55,940 bases of DNA. Source: Catajapyx aquilonaris. Lineage: Eukaryota. Each line of letters begins with the position of its first letter. The stretch's first letter is position 1. Position numbers and translations under genes: made by a program. The stretch spans positions 1-55,940 of the forward strand of contig KZ538652.1 in the NCBI GenBank assembly GCA_000934665.2, written 5' to 3'. Under the pieces are notes generated by a model. It did no database searches. It worked only from the letters and a program-made list of their open reading frames with translations, and was not told the DNA's origin. Below, one piece after another: positions 5,142-41,881 of the stretch.

Positions 5142-5378
5142 ACTTGCTGCATCTTGATTGGTTGTTCTGGGGAACTTCTGGAGTAGGTGGGGTCTCATGA
5201 CCTTGACCCAAACCTGCAGCCTTATCAGGGGGATGTTAAACTCTTCTGCTGTTTCCCTCAACTTGCCACGACATTTGGGCTCACCAAACTCATAGGCATC
5301 GAGCACTTTGTTCTTGAATTCATGGGAGTGACGGACACGTGTTGCCTTTCTTCGGGTTGCAGACCTGACTGAGGTTGA
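5142..5378 (-). CDS. Brinker-type DNA-binding domain exon
   Basis: 237-nt phase-0 exon: HSHEFKNKVLDAYEFGEPKCRGKLRETAEEFNIPLIRLQVWVK, resembling the Brinker DBD pattern (FKLQVLESY...CKGNQRATARKYNIHRRQIQKW). GTAAGT donor. Confidence 0.75.
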
Positions 5379-5703
5379 CTGCTTTGGGGGTGGAAAAAAA
5401 CTGCTTAGATAATACCAAGGTCATGCCCAGGTTAATGTGAATTTCCCCAAATTTAGTTTTGGCATGGCTGTTTAACAGTGTGAGGCAAAATACAAGGATT
5501 TGGGTCATTTTTCAACCTCATGCAATTGACCCCAGTTATAGCCCCAACTGCAGCCACGCTCCACTGATGACACCCCACATCAATATTAACATATTATGCA
5601 AGTGATATGCCTTACAGGAGGTACCCATTTTACACTGATTTAATAGGTTCTTCCACTGCATGAAGCAGTTTAATCACCATTAGTCCTTATATACGTTACG
5701 TAC

Positions 5704-6773
5704 CTCATCCTCAGAATTAGACACCACAGCGTCTTCAGAGTCGCCTCCAATGTCAGAGTCACTGCCTCTTCCTGCATGACGTTCCCTCATTTCCGTCATC
5801 CTCTGTCGAGCCTTCACTTTTGATTTCCTCGGACCAGACCGCACTTCCACCTGAGCGAAAAGAAGACAATTTGTTCCCTCTTTGACTGAATGCCTGCAAA
5901 CCATCCCATGCGTAAAATGACACCAATGACCTTAACTCTGGACCTGTCTCCCCCCAGCACATTCCAAAGATGATAGACAATATGGGGCCAGGCACAAAAT
6001 GAGTGATAGTACCTCAAACAGTTCCCAAATGACCTAATGCCTTCTGGTTACTGGGACACAAATAAACAAGCAGAATTTCCTCCGTGCTCAGTCCATGCTT
6101 CATACCTCATCCTCAGACGACTTGCTCTCGGTGCTGCCTCCCACAACGTCCCTCGTTTCCCTCTCCTCCTGCTGAGCCTCCACTTCTGAGACTCTTGGGC
6201 CAATGTCCACTTCCACCTAAATGAAAAGTCCGTTTATTAATCCACCTCCGATGAAGAAAACCGCCAGATGTTCCCACCACAAGCCCCCCAAGAATACATC
6301 ATTCCCATTCTCACATTATGCTCTCCATTCCCGGTTTGAGCATTTGTCATTCACACAGTGTAGGACAACACCATGTTGGAAAACAATAATTCTGAGCTGA
6401 GATGTTGGCCACTTCATTATTTTGAACTGTACAATCGCGTTAATAAACTTTGTCGCATCCTTGGTGAAGGTGCAACCGGTTGCACCTCCACCAAAAAAAA
6501 AAAAGGTTAGCAAAGGGTGTTTTGTCTATCTTGGAAGACTGACACTTTCCCCCCTCTCAGCTGGACAAGCAGAGTACAACTTTCACATTGACCATGTCCA
6601 GGGGCAATCAGAACCCTTACCTCAACCCTGTTTACCTGAACTGGGGCTGTGTCTGGCCTCGTCTCCCCCAGGTCTAGTGAAGTGGGTTCCGCTTCTGGCA
6701 GTCCCACATCGCCTGGGAGGGTTTCCCCACCATGGTCGTCCTCCTCCTCACGCCTGGGCGGCAACTCATCTCC
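5704..6773 (-). CDS. Acidic exon cassettes (6773-6636, 6216-6106, 5850-5704)
   Basis: AG/GT-bounded, 138/111/147 nt, open. The VEVDIGPR...SSEDE and VEVRSGPRKSKVK...SEDE exons duplicate 30906-30796 and 30518-30357. Confidence 0.6.
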
Positions 6774-12900: not shown

Positions 12901-15900
12901 GAATTTCAGGAGCCACTTCAAAGTGGGCAGTAAACATTACCGGTTTGGCTGGATATTCTGGGATGCCAAGCTGTTCTTCAATAAATAAATGCATGACATA
13001 ATTAAAATTGGTATATGTTTACATTAACTTTTAGGCCCTTGCCACACTAGGCGGAATTTCCAGCGCGGTCCACTCAAAAAAATCAAACACACGGAAGTAA
13101 AGGGGATTCTGTCAGGTTGAGACACACACGGCGAGCACCAGCGGAAGACACAGCGGAAAAAATCCACTCAGTTTTCCGTCGGGAACAATAACCCGACTGC
13201 AATACATTGATTCTACCGGGGGAATGACACACTACCGACGGAAAAAGCGGGTTCACTGGCATGGAAACCAGGGGGATTGGTGGCTGAAAGGGCCGCAAGC
13301 CGGCAGCATGGTTGACGGAAATTCCATGTGAAAAAAAGTTGCAAAGTCAAACCGCAATGGAAATTCCATCGCGGAGATTCAGCCTCGTGTGGCAAGGGCC
13401 TTAGTGGTTTCTGTAGGTCACTCATGGCCTAACTGAATTTTGGGAAACATTACCTAAAACAGTTTTATTCATATTTATTTCTAAAATGAGTTATGCATAC
13501 CTCATCCTCAGACAACTCACTCTCATGGTCAGACACCACTAAGTCTTCACTGCTGTCTTCCAAGTCAGAGGCGCTGCCCCTTCCAGAGTGACGTTCCCTC
13601 ATTTCTGTCATCCTCTGTCGAGCCTTCAGCTTTGATTTCCTTGGTCCAGAGCGCACTTCCACCTGAGCAAAAAGGAAGACTATTTTTGCCACTTTTGCCT
13701 GGAAACGTTTCATGCCTGCTTGAAAAGGCTACACCATAACTCTGGACCTGTCACCCCCACACCAATCCCTTACTCCCTTTGCACAGACCGAAAATGATAT
13801 GGGGCCAGGCACAAAATGAGTGATAGTACCTCAAACAGTTCCCAAGTGACCTAATGCCTTCTGGTTACTGGGAAACGAATAAACAAGCTCAGAATGTCCT
13901 CCATGCTCAGTCCATGCTTCATACCTCATCCTCAGACGACTTGCTCTCAGTGCTGCCTCCCACAACGTCCCTCGTTTCCATCTCCTCCTGCTGAGCCTCC
14001 ACTTCTGAGACTCTTGGGCCAATGTCCACTTCCACCTAAATGAAAAGTCAGTGTATTAATCCACCTCCGGATGAAGAAAACCGCCAGATGTTCCCACCAC
14101 AAGCCCCCCCAAGAATCCATCATTCCCATGCTCACATTATGCTCTCCATTCCCGGTTTGAGGGACATCGTCAGGCATCTCAGGATCTGTCCCAACTCTCG
14201 TCCCTTCTTGCTCCGTCTCCGCCTAGAGAAGGGAGAGACCATTAAAAATGAAGAAGTCAAAGCTTGTTTCTTTGTCCATTGACCTAATCCATTTTATGAC
14301 TATTTAATACTCATTTCATACCCATTGGGTAAAGGCAACGGATTTTTTTTGTGTGTGTTTGTTTGTCCAGGTTCGGTTCCCATGGGAACGGACCATGGAG
14401 AGTATGGGTTCCACTGCTGGTTATGTTGTATACCAGCAGCGGAACCTGCACTTTGCATGACTTGTACAGTGCTGGACACCTTAGCCGTCTCTAAATGCTT
14501 TTTTTTTTCCCCGTCGGCGACGGCGCGCGTTACCTGGCAACCCCTGCCGGCGGGCCCATTCAAACATCAGCACATGGAGAGTGCTTAGTGTCCTTTCCAT
14601 TGTTGCCACTGTTTACAAATAGAGTGAGTGACGTATGAGGACAATCCAACGACGGGTCTCTTCCTGCTTACACATCAGTAGCAAGGGATACGCAGGGAAA
14701 AACAGGAATTATGATGGTAGAAGCAAGCCATTTTGGAGAAATGTTCCCTGCTGGACTCAAAGAAAGGTTTTCGTCCACAGCACACAAAATCCCTGAGGAG
14801 GGAGTGTCAACTATTAAGATCCGGGGTGTGCTAATTGAACGTGCGTCAACTGACGGATTCTTTCAGTTTTTGCATCTTTTCCGCATAATTCGACCACCGC
14901 TAAGACGAATGGAGACCATGCCCCGTATGTTAGAACCGCGTCTGTCTCGTAATTTGCCCCCGTAAGATGTCATATTTCAAAATGGCCTCCCCACATTTAT
15001 ACGAGTACGTGTCATTCGTGTCATATTCGCGCCAGCAAGAGGAACAGGACTACTATCGGATTTTTTAATACTGGCCCGTGTGTTTGACTCTAAAGAACTC
15101 CAAGGAAAGTGGTCCAAAAAAATAACATTATACATCGTTAAAAAGCTTGTTTAAATCTACGTAACATACATGCAAGTTGGTTACCTATCTTCATTGTGTA
15201 ATTTTTAATCTCAAGAAGAACACGGAAGAGTGTCATTTTTTGACTAGGTGCCAAAGTTACGCCTCAAAGTGAATTTTTAGGTGGTCCAAAAGAGCAGGCA
15301 AAATTAATAGCCCAAAAACTTGGTGTGACAAAATTTAGTGCTTCAAATGATGGAAAGTTTCCGCAACAGGCGCAGAATTTCCTGGAAAACAGTGCATGGT
15401 GATGCAAGTGTCGTGGATGTCAAAGAAGTAGAAAATTGGACGGAGAAGTGGGAACCGTTTGTTCAGGGTATTTCAAGGGGGACATTTTCAACGGCAACGA
15501 AAGGGCAATTTTTTAGATGTGCTGTACCCTAGGCAGTACAAACTATTCCACAAAAATGCTACTGTATGGACTCTGTTTGCATCGTATTGAGGTAATTTGC
15601 TTATTTTTGTACTACTATTTTCCTCTCTTTCTCACTGGAAAAAATATATTAGTAACGTCCTTGATCTGAATATAGCGGAATATGGAAACCTGTCCAGTAG
15701 AGAACAATTTTGGGGTGACCCCATGTGATTCCGCAATACACAAGTTTCACTGTACATGTTATGTTAAAATGCAATAGTGACTCCAGTGGGAAAGGCCCGT
15801 TTTCATTTCATGCTACGATTTATTAATGCAACAAAAATATGAAACACATCCGACGGGAAACAATGTGGGCGCATGTGTGTTAAGTGCGGCTCTTACCTGC

Positions 15901-16317
15901 CCCATCCCTTCTTGTTGGTCTGGCAAGATGAACTCTGGTTCCGGCAGGACCTGCCCGCCTTGGTCCTCCCCGTCCTCCTGTAAGCAGATGTTTCAGGACA
16001 CATGTGACTGGGCTTGCACCAGGAGCGTGAAGAATACTGACCTGCTGGTGCTCCACCTTCACCCTGCTGCACCTCCCACGACGACGACGTCCTCCTCCGA
16101 CCTGCTGCGTCCCGGCCAGATCCTCCTCTCCTTCCCGCAGCTGCGCCTTGACCTTGTCCCTTGGCCCGTGTATGAACTGGTGGTGCAACAGCTGCATCCT
16201 GGTCCTGAAGGTGGCGTCCAGGCAGTAGACGCACCTGAACGTGCCTTCCTGGCCCCAGTGGCTGCTCAGGCCCCCACCGCTCCTCAGGGACACTCTCCGA
16301 CGACGACCGCCTTCCAT
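6986..16317 (-). CDS. Copy A of modular C2H2/BrkDBD/GATA gene; exons 16317-16042, 15977-15897, 14222-14136, 14035-13925, 13662-13501, 12710-12459 (BrkDBD), 11889-11803, 8758-8528 (GATA), 8470-8303, 7222-6986 (truncated ZF exon)
   Basis: ATG at 16317 (MEGGRRR...CVYCLDATFRTRMQLLHHQFIH). All listed introns are GT-AG and all exons are phase 0 and open. Collinear with copy B. The 3' end is uncertain: the transcript may skip 7222 and continue into the exons at 6773-2375. Confidence 0.65.
8528..8758 (-). CDS. GATA-type zinc finger exon
   Basis: CFNC-x17-CNACSLYLRRHGRNRP has CX2CX17CX2C spacing and the LCNAC...RP basic tail typical of GATA fingers. 231-nt exon. Confidence 0.85.
9389..9760. repeat. 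AT-rich low-complexity/minisatellite expansion with a duplicated ~40-bp flank
   Basis: Two (TATTA/TATAT)-rich tracts, each preceded by ctgtgctggttgtcacgtcaagagtcacgcaactttt (about 9389 and 9621). Absent from the paralogous site near 22806-22845. Confidence 0.85.
10083..10170 (+). mobile_element. pogo/Tigger-like terminal sequence
   Basis: TA-CAGTAAAACTTCTATAAGTCGAA start with ttcgagtta subterminal repeats; partner end not found. Confidence 0.4.
10823..10978. repeat. Small inverted repeat (MITE-like)
   Basis: gacgttggatagtagcgccgcccttcccaacggg pairs with cccgttgggaagggtggcgctactatccaacgtc. Confidence 0.6.
12459..12710 (-). CDS. Brinker-type DNA-binding domain exon (copy A)
   Basis: SLDFKNRVLDAYEFGEPKCRGNLKETARVFDVNRRTMQGWVK; 252-nt phase-0 exon. 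Confidence 0.8.
13034..13400. mobile_element. PIF/Harbinger-like MITE
   Basis: TIRs GGCCCTTGCCACAC / GTGTGGCAAGGGCC flanked by a TTA...TTA duplication. Essentially missing at the paralogous site near 29833. Confidence 0.75.
15290..15755 (+). mobile_element. pogo/Tigger transposase relic
   Basis: Degenerate translation AKLIAQKLGVTKFSASN..ESFRNRRRISWKTVHGDASVVDVKEVENW...DIFNGNE resembles the CENP-B HTH plus the start of the DDE domain. The end ...gtttcactg-TA is Tigger-like. Confidence 0.6.
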
Positions 16318-16479: not shown

Positions 16480-16500
16480 ACAGGAAGTCACGTGACTTTC
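16480..16500. promoter_or_regulatory. Candidate promoter element of copy A: palindromic AAGTCACGTGACTT (E-box) overlapping GGAAG, in a CpG-rich 5' region
   Basis: About 170 bp upstream of the ATG and conserved in copy B at about 33890-33906. Function is inferred only. Confidence 0.35.
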
Positions 16501-18240: not shown

Positions 18241-19386
18241 TCAATGCAGAGCCTTCATGTGGCTCTGGAGGTGGTGCTTCATCAGAAAGTCCTTCTTGCA
18301 CACGGTGCACACAAAGGGCCTCTCCCCAATGTGGAAGCGCATGTGCTGCTCCACGTGGTGCTTCATAGTAAAGCCCTTTCCACACACGAGACAGGAAAAG
18401 GGCTTCTCCCCAGTGTGAGTGCGCATGTGAATTGTTAAGGGGGTTTTCCTTGCAAATTTTTTGGGACACAAGTCACACTGGAGTGTCTTACCTCCACCTT
18501 CCGTGTGGACTCGAATTTTGTGCGCATTTAAGGCTGTAGGGGTGGCAAATGTCTTGTCACATAATTTGCAGGCATAGGGACGTTCTGAAGTGTGGGTTCG
18601 CTCATGTAATGTTAATTGGTTCGAATAATGGAACTGCTTCCCGCAAGTGGCACATTGCTTTGACTTCCCCCTTGACTTCTTACTGTGATTCCTCAGGTGC
18701 TTTTGCCATGAAATTATATTTGGCAATTTTTGGGGACACGAGGGGCACTGGTACTGTTTTGCTGGTTGCTTATTGTGTTTGTATATTTTGTGAGTACGTA
18801 ATCCACTTCGAGTTATATATGTCTTGTCACATAATTTGCAGGCAAAGGCACGCTCTCCACTGTGCGTCCGCTTGTGGGCCTTTAATTCACCAGGCCATTG
18901 ATATCTCTTCCCACAAGTGTCACATTTGTGCGGCAACTCACATATGTGAGTGCACCTGTGATCTGCCAGGTGCCTCTCATTGCTGTAATTTCGGGGACAC
19001 AGGTCACACTGATATCTCCTTCCTGCTCCCTTCCCGTGGATTTGATAATTGTGGCGGTCTAGGCTACCTAGCGATGCATACTCCCTGTCACATATGGTGC
19101 AGGTCACCTGAAGGGGTTTCATGTGGGCCTTCTTTGGGCGGGTAATATTGATGGGATCAAGGTCCCTCTTCCCACAAGTGGAGCATTCACACTGCCCCTT
19201 TCCAGTGCATTCTTGTGGCCTCACTGCCGTATGGGTTGCAGTGCCATTTGCTTCTTTCCCTGTCAGTCCTTCAGAGGTGGTTCTGCAAGCGGAACCCAAC
19301 CCGCTGCCTGATAACTCCATGCTTCCATCTTCGTCTTCTGATGCTGGACTTGTCGCATGTCCTGAATTGACCTCGGCCAGACAAGT
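18241..19386 (-). CDS. Terminal exon of copy B, 10 C2H2 fingers
   Basis: Acceptor ctctttcAG. Fingers run from CTICDREYASLGSLDRHNYQIH to CTVCKKDFLMKHHLQSHMKALH, with HTGEKPF-type linkers. Confidence 0.92.
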   Translation of the reverse strand, partial: TCLAEVNSGHATSPASEDEDGSMELSGSGLGSACRTTSEGLTGKEANGTATHTAVRPQECTGKGQCECSTCGKRDLDPINITRPKKAHMKPLQVTCTICDREYASLGSLDRHNYQIHGKGAGRRYQCDLCPRNYSNERHLADHRCTHICELPHKCDTCGKRYQWPGELKAHKRTHSGERAFACKLCDKTYITRSGLRTHKIYKHNKQPAKQYQCPSCPQKLPNIISWQKHLRNHSKKSRGKSKQCATCGKQFHYSNQLTLHERTHTSERPYACKLCDKTFATPTALNAHKIRVHTEGGGKTLQCDLCPKKFARKTPLTIHMRTHTGEKPFSCLVCGKGFTMKHHVEQHMRFHIGERPFVCTVCKKDFLMKHHLQSHMKALH

Positions 19387-22300
19387 CTGAAAGAGACCAC
19401 CACCACAATTGGTCAATGAGGTCAACGTTATAGTCAAATCCCGCAACCCCTATCCTTGCACAAAATGTCAATCCAATATGGCATGTGCTGTTCCCTATGA
19501 TGTATTCGGTGCTTCATTCAATAATAAACAAACAAATTCAGCGTCTATGGGTAATAACTGGTTCTAAGCGGGGAGGCGTGGTGGCAGAGTTGGCAACATC
19601 TCGGCTTAATGACTGTGAGCGAAAGGTCCCGGGTTCCATCCCCGCCAGGGCGTTCCCCTTCGCCTGCCTCAGGACCGGGTCTCTGACCCACGCCTTGGAG
19701 GCCTCCGGCCACCTAACCTCCTGGGAGACTGCACATTCCGACATTGCACATGAACCCGTGTCTCCTCCCCTAAAAATCCCCACCGTTACCCCCCATGTCC
19801 TTTCTTCCCCGAGTTTGAAGAAAAACACGAAAAATTGAATGGAAAATATGGTGGTGTTCCACCCCCCCAAAGAGGGCCTCTGGCCCTAGCACGGGGTAAT
19901 ACAAGCCCCCACCTGCAGGTGTAGTGAAACCCTGAGATAAGCCAAACCCTGCACAATAAGGTCCTGGCTCGAGGCCTAATGGGGAACGTGATGTGGCAGA
20001 GAAGTAGATCTTCCACATCGTACACCCCAATTCACCATCACCTTCAATTCCAACCTTTGACTTGGCATGGGGAACAGCAATGCCATCACTGGTGCTGGAG
20101 TTTGGGCTCACAGGACTGGAGCCACGTCTCCTCCATTGCCACAATCCATTATATATTTGGGGCACTATATAGAGGGTGTATGCAATGATCCTCCCTAATT
20201 TCAAAGAGCAGTAAAAATATGGAAATGCAGAGGTATTTAAGGTTTTTGTTGTTTAAACGGTCTGGAGACTCAACAAGTTTCATACTGGACTTTTGGAATG
20301 GTCTACGGCAGCGGTGAAAAAATGGTGGTATTCCACCCCCCTAAAAAGGCTAAGCCTTATCACAGGGTAATGTAAAAAAAAAACAAAAAAACAATCCATA
20401 TGGGGTCAATATGCAGGACCATGGAACTGCAAATTAGACACATCTCCCAGGTGCAAAACAAATGTGCACTTATTCCTAGATGTTAGTGATTAGTGACCCA
20501 ACTGGCGCAGCAGTTTAAGAATAATTTTCCCGAAATGTACATGTCAACGAATTGGACGGGTTCCTTATCCAGGATAAGGATCCCGTTTTGCCAATTCCAA
20601 ACATGCCAGTACAGGACCAAAAAAAAATTATCGAAATTTCAACAGACGAAAATTTAAATCAGGAATTTTGACATAAAACCCTCGTCACCTTTTGGGCACG
20701 GAAAGAATTGACGATTATGCTGGCATGGCAGGCTGTGCTTTGAAACACTAAGACTCAAGACAGTTTGTAGCCCCATTCCATTTGCCACAACCTATTTATG
20801 CCACAACCTATTTATGTGAAGCTGGCTTTTCATCATCAACAAAATACCGGAATCGACTGACTGTGGAAAACGACTTGAGACTCAAATTGACGTCACTTGT
20901 CCCAAACATTGGCCACTTGTGCGCAAGCAAGCAAGCACACCCATCACACTAACTGGTAATTAGTGCTCACAATTACTACGTATTATATGGTAGGATGAGA
21001 ATGGGGGTTCAAACTGTCTTGACATATTTTAAAAGGGGTACGCGGCGAAAAAAGTTTGGGAAGCCCTGGTCTACGGGATGGGGTGGTGCTCCTGTGGGGG
21101 ATGCTGTTGGAAGATGCAAACATAGCATCTACGGAGGGAAAAACACAGGCGGTGTGGTGGTTAGAATATCTTGCCCTACTCTGTCTTGTAGTTGTGGAAA
21201 GGCGAAATTTTAAGCATGTCCAGCACTTCTGTAATGGACTTGAGCTCAGCTAACCACCACACCGCCTGTGTTTTTCCCTCTGTAGATGCTGTGTTTGCAT
21301 CTTCCAACAGCATCCCCCACAGGAGCACCACCCCATCCCGTAGACCATTCCAAAAGTCCAGTATGAAACTTGTTGAGTCTCCAGACCCTTTAAACAACAA
21401 AAACCTTAAATACCTCTGCATTTAAAATACCCTGAAAATCCCCCATAAAAATAAAACCAATGTTATATAACTGAAATAGTTTCCTCTGCATCCAAGGTGA
21501 AAGGTATCGAAAAGTTTCCCTCACTGCTGGTCTTTCCTAAATTATTTTGAATCATCTGAGACATTTAACGAAAGATTATTACCAGAGGCAGTGACGTGGA
21601 TCCCTCGTCTCCTGGGAAATTGGCCTCGCAGTCAGCAGGTACATCACTATTGTTGCAATTGCCTTTGCTGTGTACAACATCGGGCCCCTCCACTTCCTCC
21701 ATCTGCTGTGCATTCTCATTGGCTGGATTGTCACTCTGGGGCATCCCCACCTGCAAAAGTGAACGTTTCAGTTTAGACATTAACATTTTTGAATGAACTG
21801 GTCTTACCACAGAAGCAGACTCCAGATTTGCTTCATTGGGTCCAGACTGGGATGATTTGGATATCTTCCTCTCCCTACTTGGGGAAATGACATTAAACAA
21901 GTGAGAGGGGCGGTTTCTGCCGTGCTTATTGTGATACCGCGAACAAGCATTGCACAACCACTCATTCGTCTTGAAAAGCTGCCAGCGATAGGAGACGGAT
22001 GTGCTGCAGTTGACGCAGCTCCGACCTTGATCACCACCCTGCAATCATCACAAAGTTCGTCATTCACACAATGTAGGACAACACCACGTTGAAAAACAAT
22101 AATTCTGAGCTGAGATGTTGTCCACTTCATTTGAATTGCATACTAAAAGTAATGTCGCTACTGCCCAAGCAGTGCATCCGACCAGGGGTGTGGGTGTAAC
22201 TGGAACTCCTGAAGAATCTTCCTGAAAGTCTTTTCTGATTCGTCCCACTGTTCCCAGCCCGAGGCCTTTAATACCAAACGGCAGCACGTTGGCCCTCCGA

Positions 22301-25300
22301 CTCTGGTTATATGCCTGGACCAGTTTGCAATGCAATCTCTTGCGCCTCCAAGTCATCGTTCCATTGCTCAATAGATCTCAATCTCTCCGACACTTCCTCT
22401 GTCCCCATGGATAACCTCTCCAGCTTCGCGTTCTGTCGTACCTCGAGATCCGCCAGGGCTGTCACCAACTCGGGCTGGTTTTTGCCAGGGCCCTTTCGCC
22501 TTCCACTATAATTGTCGCCATCCCACCCCGTAAGTTGCAATAAGGGTTGATAATAACGTTTGGCCTTCACTGGAGCGGCTCAAAACCTGTCTGGCCTGTG
22601 GGAATGCTCTCAAGAGAGTGGGACTACAACAATACATTCTGAGATGGCCAACTTGGCCCCCTTGTCATAGAATGACCCAGGCGCACCCCGGCCACCTTAT
22701 TTATTTTATATCTCGGAACCTAATACGAACACAACAATGGAAATGCATAGCACTGAAAGGTTATGAGTAGCAGATTACTCACAAATCTTTTCGTAAAATT
22801 CGACTCTGTGCTGGTTGTCACATCAAGGGTCACGCAACTTCGTAATACTGGGCAGAAGGGCAGAAGGGCAAACGAGGCGCATCCGGCCTACTTATTTACT
22901 GGATTTTATATCTTGGACCCTTATACGAGGGGGAAAATGAAACTTGCACCACTGAAGGGATATGACCTGCCAAAATGACACTTAAATTTAATCGTAGAAT
23001 TTTTTGGAGGTTATCTGCAGGTTCGGTGTCACCTTGCAGAATATTAAGCACCTTTTTGCTTGCATGTGGGGCGCATAATTAGAGAAATTACGGGTTTTTG
23101 TAAACATCTGAATGGAAAAGTTCCCATTTTTGACCTCGTCATTTAAATTGGTAATTGGCAATTGGTTACATACATACATACATTACATCACGGCTTAATC
23201 CCAGACTTGGGGTAGCCAGCGACGACTATGGGAATATATATGGGACGCGGGAATATGCGTGTTATGGGTGTTAGGTTCATTTTCGGAAGCTGAAACATGC
23301 GGCATTAAATTCCCTGAAAAATGCAAACCCCGATATGCTAATTTAAGGCGGTGTAGGGGCCTTCCCTTGGATTTCTATAAGGGACAAACAAACAAACTCT
23401 TAAACAAACTCACAAACTAACTAACTAAAATATAGATTAAGATAGGAGGGGCATACTAAAATTATTTGCAATTTATTTATGTGACAAATGTACAGGGCTC
23501 GCACAGGTCGGTAGTTGGGCACACATTATCGATGGAATCCTCCTGGAGTTGAATGCACTGGCATCATGGGTGTGCCAACCTCTCCAGGCCCTCCTGGAAC
23601 TAATTTTTGGTGATGCTAAGCACCCACTCCTGGACAACTGCACACAGTCAGCAACTGTCGTCATCAATGTCCTTGAAATGGTGTCGGTGAAGGGATTTTT
23701 CCATGGATCCGGGTTTAGATGATGCCACACCCGCCGTACTACCCTGGCCTGGTCCCCAGTGACTTTCACCTGTTCGGATCCATGAAAAAACCCCTTCCCC
23801 GCTGCCATTTCGAGGACATTGTTGAACAGGAAGCAGTTGTCCGGGAGTGGGTGTGCCAGACCACCAAAGAGTGGTTCCTGGAGGGCCTGGAGAGGCTGCC
23901 ACATACACCTGTGGTGCCAGTGCATTAGGCTCCAGGAGGAATCTCTATATAATGTGTGACCGGCTGCTGTCCTGTGAGAGCCCTGTATTTTTGGAGGGGA
24001 AATAAACTGTAGCCGTATACAAGAAGTCCATAGACTTGGCATTTCAGCCAGTCCCAACAAATGTATGATGATAATAAAAATAGTTCCTTTACCCTCATTT
24101 CATGAGATTCATGATTCCCTCGCCTTGATTGGTCCGTCTGACTCTGGCCTGATCGGGAAAGGAGACGAGGCAGGAGAAACTTGACCCAACGCTGCACTGT
24201 TTTGTGGTGTAGGCCAAACTTCTTTGCAGTTGCCCTCTGTTTGTGACGACTTGTGGAATCACCAAACTGGTAGGCCTCCAGCACTTTCTTCTTGAAATCC
24301 TGGGAGTATTTAGATGTGCGGATTTCCAGTTTGCCGGAGTTTGGCTGCAAAAGACGTGGAAAACCGACATCTCAGAACATAACTGTCTGTCTATCCAACA
24401 TTGATCTCTTTCTTTCCAGCTGTGAGGGCCCGGAGTTAAGCCTGTTTTAATGTTGGTGAATTTTGTATGGGGAAGAAATTATCCCACCACAAGCCCCCCA
24501 AGAATACATCATTCCCATGCTCACATTATGCTCTCCATTCCCGGTTTGAGGGACATCGTCAGGCATCTCCGGATCGGTCCCAACCCTCGTCCCTTCTTGC
24601 TCCGTCTCCACCTAGAGAAGGGAAGGATCATTAGAACTGAACAATCGACGTATGAAGATTGGTGTTGCATCATGTCAAATCTCAAATGAATTTACCTCGG
24701 CAACTCCCTCCCCAACCTTTTATGATGCATTCCAGCTGGACTGTAAAAATGTTCATGAAAGTTCTGACACCCTGTTGCTTATTGTTTGATGCACAATTAG
24801 TAACACCAAAATTAAGGCCATCAAATCTTTAAAAGACATTGATGCAATGTACATGTAGCTCCCACACTGAAGTTGAAGCACTCATTGCCACAACAACCAA
24901 CCAGGCATATTAGCCACATACATCGTCTAGTTTCAGTTGGATTTTGTTGGATGGCCGCTGCCCATGCGTAATAATTATTGCAACATTTTATGATTGGATT
25001 TTTAAAGCATCACGGCATACCTTGGAAACAGAAAGGTGTCTGCTGGATAAAAACTATGTGGTCCTGCCTGTGAGACAGAATTTACCAGCATGAATTATTG
25101 TCTGCTCCAGTAGAACTTCATTTGCGAAGAGACTGACAGCATTTGCAGGTCCCCCACTCGTAAGACCAACCTTGTGTACAGATGAATTAACCCAGCCATG
25201 ATGGCCGTATTATATTAACACCACACAAAATAGTTTTTAACAATTCACAGGTATACCCAAGGGGGCAGTCCAACGTTTTGGACGTTTGGACTTTTCCCGG

Positions 25301-27309
25301 AGTCACCAACATGTAAGCCATGGGTGTGCCAAGGTTTCAGCTGGCTGACATGTGTGGAAGTGGGTTACGGACGGTTAGGGAGGTGGGACAAACATACGTA
25401 CAAATATTGCCATTTATATTAAGAGATTACAAGCAGTAGCTTTGGACTAAGTGTACAGTACATGTAATTGTTATCAAGTATATTAGCTGCCAATGTTAGG
25501 TTGAATATGCACATCCCTTGTTCATTTGGGAGTCTGCATTTAATAATAATTCACACCCTGTTATCAGCCATCAGCTCTTTAGGGGGGAAGTTTGTTTTGC
25601 TTGGAACTCTTTGCTTTCATTTTACTGTGCTCTTTGGGATAGGATAGGTACGGAAGGAAACGGCAGTGGCCTATTAATTACGGAAGCAAATCCGGAATTT
25701 TCCTGGAAGGACCGTGGGAAGTCACAGAAAACCACGGTCAGAATTGCCGGCAACCGGGATTTGATCCCAGGACCTCCACATTAGCAGTCGGACACCATAT
25801 CCCCTCCTCCAAACTGCTTCTGTAGGAATCTGCATTTTGTCATCCATCAAAAAAATAATCTGATGATTCAGTTGCTTACCCTAGTTACGCTGGCTGCGCT
25901 TTCATCCGATTTTCGTCTTGGTTGCTTCGTCTGGCTTTGAGATGAGGAGGCAAGGAGACGGGGTCGCTGTTTCTTCACCCAATAAAACACGATTGCTTTT
26001 CCTATGCCAAACTTCCTTGCTGTTTCAGTCATGTTGTGGCGACATAAGGAATCACCAAAGTCATAGGCATCCAGAACTTTCTTCCTTAAATCTGGTGAGT
26101 AATGTGCCTTCTGTCCTCTCGATCTCCCCGAGACCCGTACGTTCTTTTGTGCTCCCTTCCGTTTTTCTCCCTCAGCAGGCAGCGTGGACTTGGGTACGAG
26201 TTCCCCATCTGGCAGGAGGTCATCTCCCTCATCTACCTTGGCATAAACACCTCTCGTATCCTTCTGAAACCAAACATCAATTACGCATGAGGAATTTGAA
26301 AATTAATTTATAGCTGAAGCTTGGTTTCAAGAACTCTGCATGCAGCGTCCCTCAGCCTTGAGGCATATGAAAACATGTCCAACCCAGCAAAAAGCCCCCC
26401 CAAACTGACCAAGACTTGTAGATTGGCCTCAGCCGCAGACTTTGAATGGACTAAGGGTATAACCCCAACAGGAAATTTCTTTCACTTTCACCATAGCCAT
26501 AGGTAACTCTTCTAGTGTCAGGGCCGGAAGTGGTCAGGTTCTTTACAAATATCGAATTTAATGACCTGAACAAGCAAATTAATGACCAATTAATGACCCA
26601 AACTTGACCATACAATGGCTTCCTGGGATTAACACTTCGCCAAAAGCAACTGAAGAAAATGTGTTTTTCAGAGGTATGGGGGTACAGTACCGTTCATAAA
26701 GAATGGTACGACTCTACATGGACGAAATGATTATTCTGTTCCCAACCCCTGGGTCGCCACACAGTGATCTAGATTCGGAAAACCCTGGTCACAATTATAG
26801 TTATCATCCTAGAAGGATAAAAATAAGTGAAACCTCCTGCAGACTGAGATTTGAGAACCAACACCTGAAACAGCATTGATCAGCACCAGTCCTCAAATAA
26901 GTACGAACCTCATCCTCAGATGACTCGCTCTCAAGGTCAGACACCACTACGTCTTCGCCGCTGTCTTCCAAGTCAGAGTCCCTGCCCCTTCCAGAGTGAC
27001 ATTCCCTCATTTCCGACATCTTCTGTCGAGCCTTCAGTTTGGATTGCCTTGTTCCACGCTGCACTTCCACCTGAGCCAAAACGTACACCATTATTATTTT
27101 CCTCTTTGCGTAAAAAAAAGTATTGCGCCCACAAACTGTTGTATCTTTACAATGGCCACAGGACAATTCTGACCCTATCAGTCACGCCATGTGCTGCCCC
27201 CCTGTCACTCCCACACACAATCGGTTACTCCCTCTCCACTCTCCTTGACCAATACAGATTTTGTACCCAGCACTAGGTGCAGTCTGAAGATGATCCACAC
27301 AGCATGGTT

Positions 27310-27381
<72 letters not shown>

Positions 27382-30300
27382 TATTCATACCCCGTTATCA
27401 GCCATCGGCTCTTTAGGGGGGAAGTGTGTTTTGCCTGGAACTCTTTGCATTCATTTTACTGTGCTCTTTGGGATAGGATAGGGACGGAAGGAGGAAACTT
27501 TTCCGTCATAAGTCGTACACATTTAAAATACACTGAAAATCCTCCATAAAAATAAAACCAACGTTATATAACTGAAATAGTTTCTGCTGCATCCAAGGTG
27601 AAAGGTATTGAAAAGTTTCCGTCAAGGCTGGTCTGTCTTAAATTATTTTGAATCATCTGAGACATTTAACGAAAGATTATTACCAGAGGCAGTGACGTGG
27701 ATCCCTCGTCTCCTGGGCAATTGGCCTCGCAGTCAGCAGGTACATCACTACTGTTGCAATTGCCTTTGGTGTGTACATCATTGTCCTCCTCCACTTCCTC
27801 CATCTGCTGTGCATTCTCATTGGCAGGATTGTCACTCTGGGGCATTCCCACCTGCAAAAGTGAACGTTTTAGTTTAGACATGTACATTTTTGAATGAACT
27901 GGTCTTACCACAGGAGGAGACTCCAGATTTGCTTCGTTGGTTCCCAACTGGAATGATTTGGATTTCTTCTTCTCCCTACTTTGGGAAATGCCATTGAACA
28001 AGTGAGCTGGGCGGTTTCTGCCATGCCTCCTGAGATACCCCGAACAAGCATTGCACAACCACTCATTCGTCTTAACAAGCTGCCAGCGACACGAGACGGA
28101 TGTGTTGCAGTTGAAGCAGCTCCGACTTAGATCACCACCCTGCAATCATCACAAAGTGTGTCATTCACACAATGTAGGACATCCTCACATTGAAAAACAA
28201 TAATAATTATGAGCTGAGATGTTGGCCACTTCATTTGAATTGCATACTATTAACCACAAAAGTAATGTCGCGACTGCTTGTGTGCTTTTGTGTCTGTGTG
28301 TTGGTAATCCTGGGCGCTGCCAGGTAAGCGTGGTTGTTTGTTTGGCGTCATTCCGGAAAGTTTAATGTTGAGTGATGTAGAGGACATTTATACAGGATGG
28401 AAAATCTTTCTGAAATGCAGTGATTCCCCTATGTTTAGGTTTAAGTTCATTAGAGCCAAAGCAACTCTGGCTATCTGGCTATAAGAAGATGAAAGGTGGG
28501 ACAGGTGGAGGCAGAAATAAGAGCGGAAAGACTGGTGTCTCCCTTAGTTCACCATTCACGTGCCACGCAGGAGAGGAAATTAGTGATGATTTGATTCAAC
28601 TTACACCTGCTGTACTGCATGTCACTGCATCTGGCGTTGGGAGTCTGGATGACAATGGAGGTTGAGTTGTTCCTTCTGACGATCTTGGCTGCTGCGACAA
28701 AAATGGAGGAAAAAAAATTATAAAATCAAAATGCCATTGTCATGCATTTTCTTCTTGACTACAATGCACCAAGTATTTTAAAATGTTCAATTTAACTCTC
28801 TGAAGCAAGAGTATTTCCCTTACACTTGCAAGGAATGGCCCAGCTGGTCATTCAAACAGGGTTTTTAAAAACTTGATATGCTAACAGTCATGTCATTAGC
28901 GTTTTTACTTTGCATTACATTTCCATACGCCTGAGTTCCCATTAGCTTTCAAATCCAACTTCTCCGATTTGCCAAAAGCTTTTAGGAGCAATTCGAATGG
29001 AAAACTACAAAAATAAATTTGGCAGCTTAATCACGACAGTTGTTGTATTGCCCACCTCTTCTACATATCCAGGTTGCTTCAATAATTTGGATAAGTGGTG
29101 GTGGGATCCCATCAACGTGACACAAATTGACAATGTTTCTGGGAGAATACTAAACTTATTGGAAGGGGATTCCCTTTTGTGCCCACCAGACTGTTTTGGA
29201 TGTGACACTGTCAGCTAACGCAACGGCTCAGAAGTACTCAAAATCAGTGACTCGTGAGTGAATGACTCACACTTTCTGGACTGCTAGTCGAGGCATCTTG
29301 CACTGTTGGTCTGGGGGCCTTTTTGAGTAGGTGTGGTCGCATGGACTTGACCCAACCCTGCATCGTCCTGCAGTTCACATCAAACACTCGCGCAGTTTCC
29401 TTCAAATTGCCACGACACTTGGGCTCACCAAACTCATAGGCATCTAGCACTCTGTTCTTGAAATCCAGGGAGCGACAGACAGGTGGTGCCACAATTCTGG
29501 TCGTGGGAATTGCTGGGGTTGCCTGGTATGGGGGGGTGAAAGAAATGCCATTTAGATAATGCTGTCAAGGTCATGCACTCATTACAGCCTTAAATGTGAT
29601 TTGGCATAAATCGGGTACCTCCTGTACTGGCAAAGAGTGTTTTCAATAGTTCATTCCATGTGTGCCGAAAGGTAGACCTTGAGTGAACCTCTCTGTTGCT
29701 ATTGGAAAATAGAATTTCAGGAGCCACTTCAAAGTGGGCAGTAAACATTACCGGTTTGGCTGGATATTCTGGGGTGCCAAGCTGTTCTTCAATAAATAAA
29801 TGCATGACATAATTAAAATTGGTATATGTTTACGGCCTTAGTGGTTTCTGGAGGTCACTCATGGCCTAAAGCCAATTGAATTTTGGGAAACATTACCTGA
29901 AACAATTTTATAGCTCTAAAATGAGTTATGCATACCTCATTCTCAGATGACTCACTCTTATGGTCAGACACCACTAAGTCTTCGCCGCTGTCTTCCAAGT
30001 CAGAGTCGCTGCCCCTTCTAGAGTGAAGTTCCCTCATGTCCGTCATCCTCTGTCGAGCCTTCAGTTTTGATTTCCTTGGTCCAGAACGCACTTCCACCTG
30101 AGAAAAAAAAAATACTATTTTTGCCACTTTTGCCTGGAAACGTTTTATGCCTGCTTAAAAAGGCTACGCCATAACTCTGGATCTGTCACCCCCACACCAA
30201 TCCCTTACTTGCACAGACTGAAGATGATTTGACAGATCCAGATTGATCACGTATCTACTGTGCCTTTTGCCACATGATTTAAACCATGGTTTAAACCAGC

Positions 30301-33300
30301 CAACCCAGCTACGTGAAGCAGTTTAATCACCATTAGTATTAATATAAGTTACGTACTTCATCTTCAGAAGACTCGCCCTCAGAGTTATACACCACCGTGT
30401 CTTCAGAGTCGCCTCCAATGTCAGAGTCACTGCCTCTTCCTGCATGACGTTCCCTCATTTCCGTCATCCTCTGTCGAGCCTTCACTTTTGATTTCCTCGG
30501 ACCAGACCGCACTTCCACCTGAGCGAAAAGAAGACAATTTGTTCCCTCTTTGACTGAATGCCTGCAAACCATCCCATGCTTAAAACGACACCAATGACCT
30601 GAACTCTGGACCTGTCACCCCCCAGTACCTATCCCTTACCCCCTCTGCACAGACCGAAGATGATAGACAATATGGGGCCAGGCACAAAATGAGTGATAGT
30701 ACCTCAAACAGTTCCCAAACGACCTAATGCCTTCTGGTTGTTGGGAAACAAATAAACAAGCAGAATTCCCTCCGTGCTCAGTCCATGCTTCATACCTCAT
30801 CCTCAGACGACTTGCTCTCGGTGCTGCCTCCCACAACGTCCCTCGTTTCCCTCTCCTCCTGCTGAGTCTCCACTTCTGAGACTCTTGGGCCAATGTCCAC
30901 TTCCACCTAAATGAAAAGTCAGTTTATTAATCCACCTCCGGATGAAGATAACCGCCAGATGTTCCCACCACAAGCCCCCCAAGAATACATCATTCCCATG
31001 CTCACATTATGCTCTCCATTCCCGGTTTGAGGGACATCGTCAGGCATCTCCGGATCTGTCCCAACACTCGCCCCTTCTTGCTCCGTCTGCACCTAGAGAA
31101 GGGAGAGACCATTAAGAATGAACAATCAACATGAAGTTTTGCATCATGTCCAGATTTCAAATGAATTTACCTCGGCAACTCCCTCCCAACCATTTCAGCA
31201 GCATTCCAGCTGGATTGTAAAAATGAATGTGAAAATTCTGACAGTCTCTTGTTGATTGTTTGCTGCACAATTATTAGGAACACCAAAATCCAAACCGCCA
31301 ATATACTTTGAAGATACATCAGGTGGAATTTTCACTCTACTGCCTAGTCTCTGCCAGCAGTCTGCTACTGCTAATCAGGGTTCTCCCACAAGCCTTTACA
31401 TCAGACACCAATTCAGAGGCATCGAGTATTGTGCACTTAGTTTTACGTCTGATGGAGAGGAAATTTGTCAGCTGTGAAAGATCTGTCCGGAATGCAGTGA
31501 TTACCCCATGCGAAGCAGTGACTGCAGCATTAAAACTTCTCCTATCACCCTCGATTAGCCTTAACCCAAATATGCCTATCGTCCACAATAGGGAACATTT
31601 GTGCAATATATTATGTTTTTATTGTTGTAGTTCTTCTTCAGCTTATGAGACGGCATCGGCATCCCCGTAACTCTATCATTATGCAAGGCAAGGCCTGTTT
31701 CTTTGTCCATTTATCTAATCCATTTAATGCCTATTTAATGCTCATTTCATACCCATTGGGGAAAGGCAACATTTTTTTTTTGTTTGTTTGTCCAGGTTTG
31801 GTTACCATAGAAACAGACGATGGGGAGAATGGCCTCCGCCGCTAGTTACATCGTACCAGCAGCGGAACCCGTACTTTGAATGGCTTGTAGGCCAATGAAA
31901 ACAACAGCAATCAATCACTGTTGATGCTGCTGAACCACTATCATTGTCCTGACTTAAGGGGGCGCATTAGTAAAAATACGGTGGGCGCACTTTTGAGGGA
32001 ATTTTATATTTTGTGGCGAAACAGACGGATAATAGGAAAAAATCACGCCGAAGGTGCCAGCTGCCCAAAGGTTTGGCCTTTACTATGGTACCATACTCGA
32101 TATGATTGCATTAAAATTGTGGACATACGGGCGCAGAAGCGTTCCCGACTTTGTCGCGTTCCTGCCGCCATGTTATTCAAATGGCCTTTTCAGGAACGCC
32201 CCTTTCACTTCAACTCGATGAAAAGGTCACTTCTAGGCTGAAAATGGTAAAATGACGCCGAAGGTGCCCTGCGCCAGATCATGTCCTATTTTTTGGTGTA
32301 AATTTTGTGTCCATTGCACCATATTTGCGGCCGTGCGGCCGCAGAAGCGTAGACATGTCGAATCCCCATATGCTGTCCATGCATACGCGAGTTTGTTTAC
32401 GTGGTCGCCAAGGGCTCGCATTGTTACCGATTGTTACCGTATTTTTTTACTAATGCGCCCCCTTAATCATGGCAACAACAAATAACAATGAAAACCAAGA
32501 CATGGCCATGGCAACAATGGGTCTATGGTGTTTGTGTCGACATTATCGCAGCAGCAACCAAATGCTGCCTGGTTCCGTGGTACTGTAAACAACAACAATC
32601 AATCAATCAATCAATCAATAATTGCTAATGCCATAGAAACTAGTTGCCATTGTAACTACACCTGGACAACCACTTGGCCTTTACCAAATGGATATGAAAT
32701 GAGCATAAAACAGGCATAAAATGGGTATGACATGTGGTAAATGGACAAAGAAACTTTGCCTTTTAATAATAACAGATATAATGAAACCTGCCCATTACAG
32801 ACCCCTGGGTACAGCGGAAATCTATCAATTACGAAAATTTTCCTGGGAACGGGCGTAACCATAGGGCATGCAGTGTTTTTTTGGGGGGATTTTACGGAAC
32901 CTGCCCAATGCGGAAATGGAAGGGATTTTTGGCTCCCTTAGGAGAAAATCTCTGTTCATAACGGAAATCAAAAGGTTCACATTATCTCCCATGAGTCAAA
33001 CATAGAAACTACAGCTGGGTTCACTCTTGGCCCTTCCAGGAGGCCTGAGTAACCCTTGATCTGAATAGAGCGGAAACAGGAAACCTATCCAGTACAGAAC
33101 ATTTTTGGGGTGACCCCGTGCGATTCCGCAATACGCAGGTTTCTCTGTACTACGTTAAGATGCAATAGTGAGTGACTCCAGTGGGAAAAGCCCGTTTTCA
33201 TTTCATGCTACGCGTTATTAATGCAACAAAAATATTAAACACATCCGACGAGAAACAATGTGAGCACACGTGTGTTAAGTGCGGCTCTTACCTGCTCCAC

Positions 33301-33706
33301 CCCTTCTTGGTGGTCTGGCAAGATGAACTCTGGTTCCGGCAGGACCTGCCCGCCTTGGTCCTCCCCGTCCTCCTGTAAGCAGATGTTTCAGGACACATGT
33401 GACTGGGCTTGCACCATGAGCGTGAAGAATACTGACCTGGCAAGTGCGGCCTCCATGGTCCTGTTGGTGCTCCACCTGACGACGACCTCCTCCGACCTGA
33501 GGCCCGGCCAGATCCTCCTCTCCTTCCCCCAGTTCCGCCTTGACCCTGTCCCTTGGCCCGTGTATGAACTGGTGGTGCAACAGCTGCATCCTGGTCCCGA
33601 AGGTGGCGTCCAGGCAGTAGACGCACCTGAACGTGCCTTCCTGGCCCCAGTGGCTGCTCAGGCCCCCACCGCTCCTCAGGGACAGCCTCCTCCGACCGCC
33701 TTCCAT
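18241..33706 (-). CDS. Copy B: 17-exon protein (~1346 aa) with 1 N-terminal C2H2, acidic repeats, 3 Brinker-type DBDs, 2 GATA fingers and 10 C-terminal C2H2 fingers
   Basis: Exons 33706-33437, 33372-33292, 31092-31006, 30906-30796, 30518-30357, 30097-29936, 29522-29271 (Brk), 28691-28605, 28139-27909 (GATA), 27851-27684, 27070-26909, 26263-25880 (Brk), 24611-24525, 24344-24093 (Brk), 22038-21808 (GATA), 21750-21583, 19386-18241 (ZF array, TGA). All are GT-AG, multiples of 3 and in frame. Joint use in one mRNA is inferred. Confidence 0.72.
19575..19650 (+). mobile_element. tRNA-derived SINE-like head (paralogous copies at ~7410 and ~52110)
   Basis: A-box-like TGGCAGAGTTGG and B-box-like GGTTCCATCCC with tRNA-like spacing; no complete cloverleaf. 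Confidence 0.45.
20222..21423. mobile_element. Foldback/Tc1-like non-autonomous element with long inverted arms (interrupted by the hAT above)
   Basis: 20222-20308 plus 21069-21163 is the reverse complement of about 21250-21423. Paralog at about 52720-53145 starts TA-CAGGGTGTCC, a Tc1/mariner-like end. Confidence 0.6.
20309..21068 (+). mobile_element. hAT (Charlie/Buster-type) deletion derivative
   Basis: 8-bp TSD GTCTACGG (20301-20308, 21069-21076) and CAG...CTG termini. Carries the C-terminal dimerisation relic PFATTYLCEAGFS...TKYRNRLTVENDLRLKLT...KQAHPSH*. Empty site in the paralog near 52848. Confidence 0.85.
21808..22038 (-). CDS. GATA finger exon (copy B, second)
   Basis: CVNCSTSVSYRWQLFKTNEWLCNACSRYHNKHGRNRP. 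Confidence 0.85.
22170..22570 (-). pseudogene. Degenerate non-LTR retrotransposon ORF1-like fragment
   Basis: A coiled-coil segment (LADLEVRQNAKLERL...RLRSIEQWNDDLE) followed, after a frameshift, by NQSRRANVLPFGI, resembling the ORF1 'RRNNxxxxGI' motif. Confidence 0.35.
23719..23905 (+). mobile_element. mariner transposase C-terminal relic
   Basis: HPPYYPGLVPSDFHLFGSMKKPL...FEDIVE...VREW...EWFLEGLERLP matches the mariner YSPDLAPSDFHLF motif region. Confidence 0.8.
24093..24344 (-). CDS. Brinker-type DBD exon (copy B, third)
   Basis: SKYSQDFKKKVLEAYQFGDSTSRHKQRATAKKFGLHHKTVQRWVK, the closest match here to the Brinker DBD pattern. Confidence 0.85.
25880..26263 (-). CDS. Brinker-type DBD exon (copy B, second); absent from the ORF track
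   Basis: Manually translated 384-nt open exon: ...HYSPDLRKKVLDAYDFGDSLCRHNMTETARKFGIGKAIVFYWVKK...; tttcAG acceptor and GTAAGC donor. Confidence 0.8.
27313..27381. repeat. (AAT)n microsatellite
   Basis: Perfect trinucleotide run. Confidence 0.95.
27909..28139 (-). CDS. GATA finger exon (copy B, first)
   Basis: CFNCNTSVSCRWQLVKTNEWLCNACSGYLRRHGRNRP. Confidence 0.85.
29271..29522 (-). CDS. Brinker-type DBD exon (copy B, first)
   Basis: Near-identical to 12710-12459; 252 nt, phase 0. Confidence 0.8.
31958..32462. mobile_element. Kolobok-like MITE
   Basis: TTAA duplication (31954-57, 32463-66) and TIRs GGGGGCGCATTAGTAAAAA / TTTTTACTAATGCGCCCCC. Purine termini plus TTAA fit Kolobok rather than piggyBac. 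Confidence 0.7.

Positions 33707-41880: not shown

Positions 41881-41881
<1 letters not shown>

Follow-up and report, generated by a model that had tools for sequence, protein, structure and literature searches.

A candidate gene combining Brinker-type, GATA-type and C2H2 DNA-binding cassettes in a tandem cluster of Catajapyx aquilonaris

Organisation of the gene B locus

Contig KZ538652.1 of the Catajapyx aquilonaris assembly GCA_000934665.2 carries a tandem cluster of one gene family, recognised by self-comparison and from the list of open reading frames (ORFs), with at least four or five related units. The stretch analysed here (55,940 nucleotides (nt), positions 1 to 55,940 of the forward strand; hereafter the window) is animal-type eukaryotic DNA with spliced genes, transposable-element remains and microsatellites. 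Our subject is the interval 33706-18241 on the minus strand, which we are inclined to read as one protein-coding gene, termed gene B, of this young, tandemly arrayed family. Three classes of DNA-binding module lie there between one start and one stop exon, namely helix-turn-helix (HTH) cassettes of the Brinker (Brk) type, GATA-type zinc fingers and C2H2 zinc fingers, and the same layout recurs in a second unit of the window, A2.

A chain of 17 exons was reconstructed for gene B, with a summed product of 1330 amino acids (aa). The limits are exact, as 33706 is the A of the ATG and 18243-18241 form the TGA stop. All 17 candidates have an AG and a pyrimidine-rich tract upstream and a GT downstream (mostly gtaag, gtgag or gtcag), and the internal exons are stop-free, of phase 0-0 and of lengths that are all multiples of 3 nt. 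The exons, in the order of the predicted transcript, are:

33437..33706, minus strand: E1, 90 aa, with the ATG at 33706-33704, one C2H2 finger (CVYCLDATFGTRMQLLHHQFIH) and the donor CAG/gtcagt
33292..33372, minus strand: E2, 27-aa acidic exon after a 64-nt intron, donor CAG/gtaaga; intact A2 copy at 15977-15897
31006..31092, minus strand: E3, 29-aa acidic exon (VQTEQEG...PEMPDDVPQ...); copies at 24611-24525 and 14222-14136
30357..30518, minus strand: E4, acidic cassette c, 54 aa, with a basic PRKSKVKARQR followed by a Ser/Asp/Glu-rich stretch
29936..30097, minus strand: E5, acidic cassette b, 54 aa (..SDSDLEDSGEDLVVSDHKSESSENE)
29271..29522, minus strand: E6, Brk-like HTH cassette 3, 84 aa; 96% nt identity to the A2 copy
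28605..28691, minus strand: E7, 29-aa Ser/Thr/Pro-rich exon with a strong pyrimidine tract; intact A2 copy at 11889-11803
27909..28139, minus strand: E8, GATA-type zinc finger 2 (CX2CX17CX2C) with a basic tail, 77 aa
27684..27851, minus strand: E9, 56-aa acidic exon (VGMPQSDNPANEN...), preceded by a 57-nt intron, open and in frame
26909..27070, minus strand: E10, acidic cassette a, 54 aa (..GEDVVVSDLESESSEDE), with the weak donor gttcgt
25880..26263, minus strand: E11, Brk-like HTH cassette 2, 128 aa, alignable with the other Brk cassettes
24525..24611, minus strand: E12, copy of E3, 29 aa
24093..24344, minus strand: E13, Brk-like HTH cassette 1, 84 aa
21808..22038, minus strand: E14, GATA-type zinc finger 1, 77 aa
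21583..21750, minus strand: E15, copy of E9, 56 aa
19913..19975, minus strand: E16 (doubtful), 21-aa open AG..GT segment whose counterpart in paralog C has a 1-nt gap
18241..19386, minus strand: E17, last exon, 381 aa, with about 95 unique aa and then 10 C2H2 fingers; TGA at 18243-18241

A preliminary description of this locus, made from the letters of the sequence, had proposed 17 open, in-frame GT-AG exons encoding about 1346 aa. The exons could be rebuilt with their splice dinucleotides and open frames, but the product is somewhat shorter than proposed, and E16 was rejected as a firm exon on account of the gap in its paralog C counterpart. Without it, gene B has 16 exons and encodes 1309 aa.

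Open phase-0 segments of this kind are in excess of what base composition yields. In the gene B region, 10 AG..GT loci of 81 nt or longer are open in phase 0 and together cover 1968 nt, whereas the corresponding counts in 100 dinucleotide shuffles of the region had a mean of 1.0 and a maximum of 3, all at one fixed splice-score cut-off. The exon scans were restricted to phase-0 exons, and the uniform phase is thus partly a product of the search design; the boundaries found fall on the best consensus splice sites, and paralogous similarity ends there too. Because all gene B cassettes are phase 0, any subset of them stays in frame, and in-frame joining was for this reason rejected as proof of a 17-exon mRNA. 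Downstream of E17, ATTAAA and AATAAA motifs occur at a distance of 440-1060 nt.

Some of the introns are very short, at 57 nt (27852-27908 and 21751-21807) and 64 nt (33373-33436). Each GATA exon is followed by one of the 57-nt introns, which contains no stop and keeps the frame, such that its retention would add 19 residues and leave the protein unbroken. Opposite the GC-rich first exons of gene B and A2, open frames also run on the plus strand, at 33239-33751 (171 aa) and 15781-16524 (248 aa), respectively. The 171-aa frame has no Pfam match, and both frames are probably a by-product of composition.

DNA-binding modules of gene B

The C2H2 fingers are the most readily recognised of the modules. 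Pattern matching finds ten in E17 and one in E1, which bears out the eleven counted previously, and E17 matches Pfam zf-C2H2 (PF00096) above the gathering score (E-value (E) 4.3e-33, 112 bits). The E17 fingers are CX2-4CX12HX3-5H units with TGEKP-like linkers, the ten having CX2CX12HX3-5H spacing.

The two GATA-type fingers proposed earlier, in E8 and E14, are likewise upheld. Both exons have the CX2CX17CX2C spacing and the W, LCNAC and NRP landmarks, and C8, C11, W19, C29-N-A-C32 and N42-R-P44 are kept in all three GATA copies (E8, E14 and that of A2). The canonical WRR of GATA fingers reads WQL in both gene B copies and WRR in A2. Combined into one profile and compared with PDB sequences, the three copies (two from gene B and one from A2) matched 4hc7 (GATA-3) at E 1.8e-21, 3vd6 (GATA-1) at 9.8e-21 and GATA-4 within 1.1e-18. 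Sixteen of the 17 chains found at E of 1 or below are GATA-type fingers (E of 0.0012 or below), the seventeenth being MTA1 at E 0.19.

The HTH exons are more diverged, with 31-38% mutual aa identity among the three of gene B. When compared with Pfam BrkDBD (PF09607; gathering score 23.4 bits), E13 scores above the threshold (34.5 bits, E 2e-8), E6 just below it (22.6 bits, E 1e-4) and the A1 copy, from a partial unit described below, 20.1 bits. The E11 ORF has no BrkDBD match, and its best match is HTH_Tnp_IS630 (E 1.5e-4, 22.2 bits). Against PDB sequences, the sole significant match of a five-copy HTH profile is the DNA-binding domain (DBD) of Drosophila Brinker, 2GLO, at E 1.4e-8; the next chain follows at E 0.2 and the PAI domain of Sleeping Beauty at 0.85. 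An AlphaFold model of E6 has three to four helices, with helices at residues 19-31, 40-47 and 51-61 and a predicted local distance difference test (pLDDT) score of 86-89 in the helical core. A Foldseek search with this model puts 2GLO at the top with a probability of 0.99, but at an E-value of 0.18. 'Brk-type HTH' would thus seem a fair name for these predicted cassettes.

The name stands for a type of HTH and extends beyond Brinker. BrkDBD is also the Pfam label for the N-terminal HTH of pogo/Passer transposases and of POGK (PMC7386202); BrkDBD genes are reported from pufferfish (PMC4263296), and the domain appears in gene tables of a cnidarian and a clam (PMC9926710, PMC9781830). In view of these carriers, BrkDBD is neither Brinker-specific nor arthropod-specific. 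Three HTH cassettes, as first described, are therefore present as Brk-type HTHs, but the label is wider than Brinker and E11 scores best as an IS630-type transposase HTH.

A Pfam search of 14 further ORFs and small exons of the locus, on both strands, gave no family; KRAB, SCAN, ZAD and BTB were not found; E1, E2, E3, E7, E9 and E10 matched no family; and neither HTH_Tnp_Tc5 nor DDE_1 was matched in any ORF.

A tandem cluster of related units

The family unit can be described as a first exon with one finger, followed by acidic cassettes, a Brk HTH, a GATA finger with a basic tail and a last exon with a C2H2 array. Besides gene B, the window contains the following units or parts of units:

6995..16317, minus strand: paralog unit A2, with E1, E2, E3, one acidic cassette, Brk, E7, GATA, an E9-like exon and a short last exon
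4190..5850, minus strand: partial unit A1, with an acidic cassette carrying a 15-nt in-frame deletion, Brk (5378-5136) and a six-finger C2H2 exon (4855-4190), and without a first exon of its own
50813..51922, minus strand: last exon of paralog C, with 10 C2H2 fingers; an acidic cassette lies at 55021-54860 and the rest past the window end
2536-2375: acidic cassette, part of a further unit that extends past the other window end

A2 follows the exon order of gene B. Its exons have AG/GT boundaries and open frames in nine of nine cases, and its first exon is 86% identical to E1 at the nt level, while an in-frame deletion in its last exon has removed most of the fingers (one whole C2H2 finger and part of another are left). 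The copies of E10 at 2375-2536 and 54860-55021 are 93-95% identical to it in nt sequence. With at least four or five units, the same order of modules and intact splice sites in A2, the proposal that gene B belongs to a family is borne out.

The unit copies follow one another in tandem and are collinear, introns and promoter-side flanks included, and the inverted repeats in the window do not bracket them. By self-BLAST, first-exon similarity is confined to 33048-34192 and 15651-16790, and last-exon similarity to 18.4-19.0, 4.1-4.7, 7.0-7.2 and 51.0-51.6 kb, none of it internal to gene B; a further copy of a first or last exon was not found within 18241-33865. As end-exon similarity is thus found only at unit ends, gene B has exactly one start and one stop exon. 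Judged from its sequence organisation, the window is a birth-and-death cluster of gene B's family.

Origin of the additional cassettes

Gene B carries more cassettes than A2, and several of them are recent copies of others. E12 is a 95% copy of E3; E14 is 88% identical to E8, and E15 is 94% identical to E9. The three GATA blocks, two in gene B and one in A2, are about equidistant from one another (84-88% exon identity). In contrast to these young duplicated exons, the Brk cassettes of gene B are old, with a synonymous divergence (dS) of 1.0-1.4 between Brk1 or Brk2 and Brk3.

From this pattern, gene B reads as a 5′ unit (E1-E9, A2-like without a last exon) to which two partial units have been joined, one of E10-E11 and one of E12-E17; such a fusion would stay in frame because all cassettes are phase 0. 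The unit design is one Brk HTH, one GATA finger and a C2H2 array, and the three Brk and two GATA cassettes would not be ancestral. Microsatellites of the (AAT)n type together with an AT-rich low-complexity block coding for Tyr and Ile lie at 27300-27400, 41800-41900 and 9340-9813; one of these tracts coincides with the boundary between two of the putatively fused partial units in gene B.

Constraint on the reading frames

Open frames are present in both copies in 16 of 16 paralog exon comparisons. The strength of this observation was gauged for the last exon by simulation, in which 101 random substitutions left the 1143-nt exon free of stop codons in 0.8% of 20000 runs. The flanks of the last exon have accumulated 21 insertions or deletions (indels) in 2109 nt, only five of which are multiples of 3, and both exon copies are nonetheless in frame. 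None of the 40 zinc-binding Cys and His residues in the 10 fingers has been lost from either gene B or paralog C. Between the same two copies, 14 of 40 DNA-contact positions of the fingers have changed, compared with 26 of 130 other core sites, so that changes lean towards the contact positions (p = 0.058). Older comparisons are available from the Brk cassettes, where the HTH cores of pairs at dS 1.0-1.7 have omega values of 0.28-0.37. Taken together with the less favourable comparisons given below, this picture of selection is easier to reconcile with a functional family that diversifies quickly than with dead DNA, although single cassettes or units may be dead.

Searches for relatives

An exhaustive HMMER search with the last exon gave 165,616 matches at E of 0.001 or below, in a list ordered by summed finger scores, and the best 150 are giant poly-zinc-finger proteins. 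Among these best 150 of 165,616, none has a best stretch that begins before query residue 91, and custom hidden Markov models found a GATA or Brk domain in 0 of 150. Word-based searches among longer proteins, which are weak tests, gave no match for the GATA exon ORF (121 candidates), the Brk3 exon ORF (66) or the unique N-terminal part of E17 (226). In the ESM Atlas, all matches were to generic clusters, of bacterial HTHs (best 0.89) and of GATA fingers (best 0.88), which carry no information on architecture, and Rfam gave no matches at gathering scores over the whole window.

A metagenome scan with the Brk profile gave at least 596 pattern matches and, among the matches listed, one confirmed locus, L001. 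It was rejected as a relative of gene B, as its frame at 232-1223 on the plus strand is a bacterial IS630-family transposase (36% identity). The N-terminal HTH of L001, YSIDLRKRVLDAYDSG, is close to Brk cassette 2, YSPDLRKKVLDAYDFG, a likeness that fits a common ancestry of Brk-type HTHs and the HTHs of IS630/Tc1 transposases.

In the literature, our search found no description of a protein with Brk, GATA and C2H2 domains together. GATA and C2H2 fingers do have a joint precedent in TRPS1 (PMC7549555).

Other elements in the window

MULE-type transposase ORFs lie at 37083-38788 (minus strand) and 41227-41619 (plus strand), with Pfam matches to MULE (E 1.8e-7) and a ZSWIM1-3 RNaseH-like domain (9.8e-5). 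They are broken by runs of N at 37107-37174 and 38776-38781, and a 99% identical inverted partial copy is present at 41241-41576; the element looks to have been recently active. Further along, a reverse-transcriptase remnant (44305-45024, minus strand) is adjoined by an ORF at 45470-46405 (plus strand) with a transmembrane tail and a match to Baculo_F, the baculovirus F envelope protein (E 7e-8), and then by a 555-aa ORF of no known family (46843-48507). This arrangement suggests an errantivirus-like endogenous retroelement at 44305-48507. The Baculo_F-type frame and the introns of 57 and 64 nt would be in keeping with an invertebrate, perhaps arthropod, host.

Within gene B, a mariner-like transposase remnant (..PHPPYYPGLVPSDFHLFGSMKK.., plus strand) occupies 23473-24099, in the intron that immediately follows Brk cassette 1; a 69-aa piece of it has no Pfam match. 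A block of repeats in both direct and inverted orientation, each about 135-150 nt long and with 80-91% identity, lies at 53469-54675, upstream of the paralog C last exon. An inverted repeat pair of about 540 nt (42296-42826 and 43017-43555) is 96% identical and has the same 124-aa open frame in each arm, and a short repeat related to it occurs at 16786-16990 and 42082-42289.

One gene, several genes or decaying copies

A number of observations weigh against reading 33706-18241 as one functional gene. The joining of all 17 exons in one mRNA is a prediction from genomic DNA, E16 is frame-broken in paralog C and the donor of E10 (gttcgt) is weak. The Pfam GATA (PF00320) scores of the two exon ORFs, 18.3 and 21.4 bits, lie below the gathering score of 26.8. 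Among young paralog exons, omega ranges from 0.19 to 1.87 and is 0.9 or higher in 5 of 16 comparisons. The last exon carries 101 mismatches in 1096 nt (9.2%) compared with 137 in 2109 nt (6.5%) of its flanks (p = 0.007), and in the GATA blocks exon mismatches of 9.5-12.0% stand against 6.6-8.4% in flanking DNA, a difference that is not significant. Exons that diverge as much as or more than the surrounding non-coding DNA fit diversifying selection, and fit relaxed constraint as well. Open frames are weak evidence in the case of the GATA and E9 exons, which stayed open in 14% of simulations with 48 random substitutions. A1 has no first exon and the A2 last exon is truncated, so that some cassettes may be dead. 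No relative outside the window was found in the protein, metagenome and Atlas searches made, so the model is not backed by conservation across species. Finally, the SUMO-motif and repressor readings set out in the next section are suggestions from general knowledge of such motifs.

Alternatively, the locus could comprise two or more transcription units, such that the three domain types would not all be present in one gene B protein. An example would be a 5′ gene of E1-E9 with an unrecognised terminal exon, and one or two 3′ genes with unrecognised first exons upstream of E10 or E12 that end in the C2H2 exon. Gene B does resemble a fusion of partial units (E12 resembling E3, and E14/E15 resembling E8/E9), the kin of E10 lie nearer the last exon in paralog C and in the 2375-2536 unit, and A1 demonstrates that a partial unit without a first exon exists. 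Yet the interior of gene B contains neither a first- or last-exon copy nor a candidate terminal exon, and all its cassettes are phase 0, are bounded by AG and GT and would splice in frame; we regard division into separate genes as unlikely. Even if gene B were split, A2 alone joins Brk, GATA and C2H2 modules, and the combination would survive in the family. A different case, which we judge distinctly improbable, is that gene B or most of the cluster consists of decaying recent segmental duplicates whose open frames are relics of a recently functional ancestor. Omega values near 1 in several young exon pairs, exon divergence at or above intron divergence, the truncated and partial units, the wealth of transposable elements around and inside the units and the want of an outside relative in the searches made would all be expected of such duplicates. 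Such duplicates would not readily explain a last exon kept free of stops against a probability of 0.008 under random substitution, in frame in both copies beside flanks with 21 indels (five of them multiples of 3), with 40 of 40 zinc ligands of its 10 fingers kept, nor old Brk pairs (dS of 1 or more) with omega values of 0.28-0.37, nor splice sites intact in all copies examined.

The cassettes might also be fragments of host genes, or parts of a transposase, multiplied by a mobile element similar to Pack-MULEs or to pogo/Passer. Transposases, too, use the Brk-type HTH as a DNA-binding module (PMC7386202), E11 scores best as HTH_Tnp_IS630, the only metagenome relative among the matches listed is the bacterial IS630-type transposase with 36% identity, and MULE, mariner and retroelement remains lie within the window. 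Against this, Pfam finds no DDE or HTH_Tnp_Tc5 domain in or beside the units, the copies are collinear and in tandem with their introns and promoter-side flanks rather than dispersed with terminal repeats, and no unit is bracketed by the inverted repeats in the window; we hold such an origin to be very remote.

The reading of 33706-18241 as a single gene of a tandem family is therefore retained, with confidence that differs between its parts. The lineage-specific family of regulators with multiple DBDs is probably real. A transcript that contains at least one Brk cassette, at least one GATA exon and the C2H2 array would be rather probable, whereas one with the full 16-17 exons seems doubtful. 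The chimeric transcription-factor family of the preliminary description is partly sustained, in that three domain types lie on one strand between one ATG exon and one stop exon, but the threefold and twofold module counts come from fused or duplicated partial units.

Proposed function and evolution

Symmetric phase-0 cassettes could be duplicated, shuffled or skipped without a break in the frame, and the extra cassettes of gene B (three Brk, two GATA and three acidic) may have arisen by duplication and by fusion of partial units. The cassettes would be spliced into one nuclear, sequence-specific DNA-binding regulator, possibly in several isoforms, and its several independent DNA-binding modules might allow long or composite sites to be read.

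The gene B product would more likely be a repressor. The acidic cassettes (PRKSKLKARQR ... GEDVVVSDLESESSEDE) have a basic stretch, presumably a nuclear localisation signal, followed by a hydrophobic VVVSD or LVVSD core in a Ser/Asp/Glu run, which we take to be a phospho-regulated SUMO-interaction-like pattern; repression is therefore suggested as their possible role. The family may turn over rapidly, as do other clustered zinc-finger families, and may track changing targets such as mobile elements, in analogy to KRAB-ZFPs and ZAD-ZNFs. An extended version of this idea, which we offer as speculative and rather unlikely, is that the family is an invertebrate counterpart of the KRAB-ZFPs: fast-evolving repressors in which Brk (transposase-derived), GATA and C2H2 cassettes are duplicated, shuffled and alternatively spliced, such that a small number of genes would yield many DNA-binding specificities, in which a SUMO-interaction-like acidic silencing domain takes the place of KRAB or ZAD, and which probably target transposable elements or endogenous viruses.

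If transcribed as modelled, the family would show, in real time, how phase-0 cassettes within a birth-and-death cluster give rise to new DNA-binding architectures, with one type of cassette being of transposase-like ancestry, and would provide a natural system for multi-module DNA reading. If the exons belong to separate or dead units, it would merely be another unstable zinc-finger cluster.

Comparison with known systems

To our knowledge, transcription factors nearly always use one DNA-binding fold, and those that mix two are few (TRPS1, ZEB/ZFHX and POGZ). Of these, TRPS1 is a vertebrate repressor of 1294 aa with seven C2H2 fingers, one GATA finger and two Ikaros-like C2H2 fingers (PMC7549555). 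TRPS1 is about as large as the gene B product and likewise unites a GATA-type finger with numerous C2H2 fingers in a nuclear protein, but its GATA finger lies between C2H2 groups and it has no known HTH module. Gene B, in contrast, has the order C2H2, Brk, GATA, C2H2 array and lies in a young tandem cluster with cassette duplication.

The DBD of Brinker (2GLO, PF09607) shares with the gene B HTHs the pattern ..VL.AY....C.G....TA..F.....Q.W... Brinker itself carries a single N-terminal DBD together with co-repressor motifs and is not known to have zinc fingers. Gene B, unlike Brinker, has three diverged HTH copies inside a zinc-finger protein, two of which are at or below the Pfam gathering score. 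Among the pogo/Passer domesticates, POGK has a Brk-type HTH and POGZ has C2H2 fingers, each within a host gene that also contains further modules of transcription factors or transposases (PMC7386202). Gene B differs from both in having GATA fingers instead of HTH_Tnp_Tc5 and DDE_1.

In genomic organisation, the gene B family resembles two clustered, fast-evolving C2H2 families. The KRAB-ZFPs of tetrapods and the ZAD-ZNFs of insects form tandem clusters with the finger array in the last exon, and undergo rapid birth and death with changes in the finger helices. The gene B family likewise has a tandem cluster and a finger array in a single last exon, and changes in its fingers lean towards DNA-contact positions (p = 0.058), whereas its N-terminal part consists of HTH, GATA and acidic cassettes and contains no KRAB, SCAN, ZAD or BTB domain. 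These comparisons suggest that gene B is of a known kind, the modular zinc-finger regulators with multiple DBDs, and that what would be new in it is the occurrence of a Brk-type HTH, GATA fingers and C2H2 fingers together.

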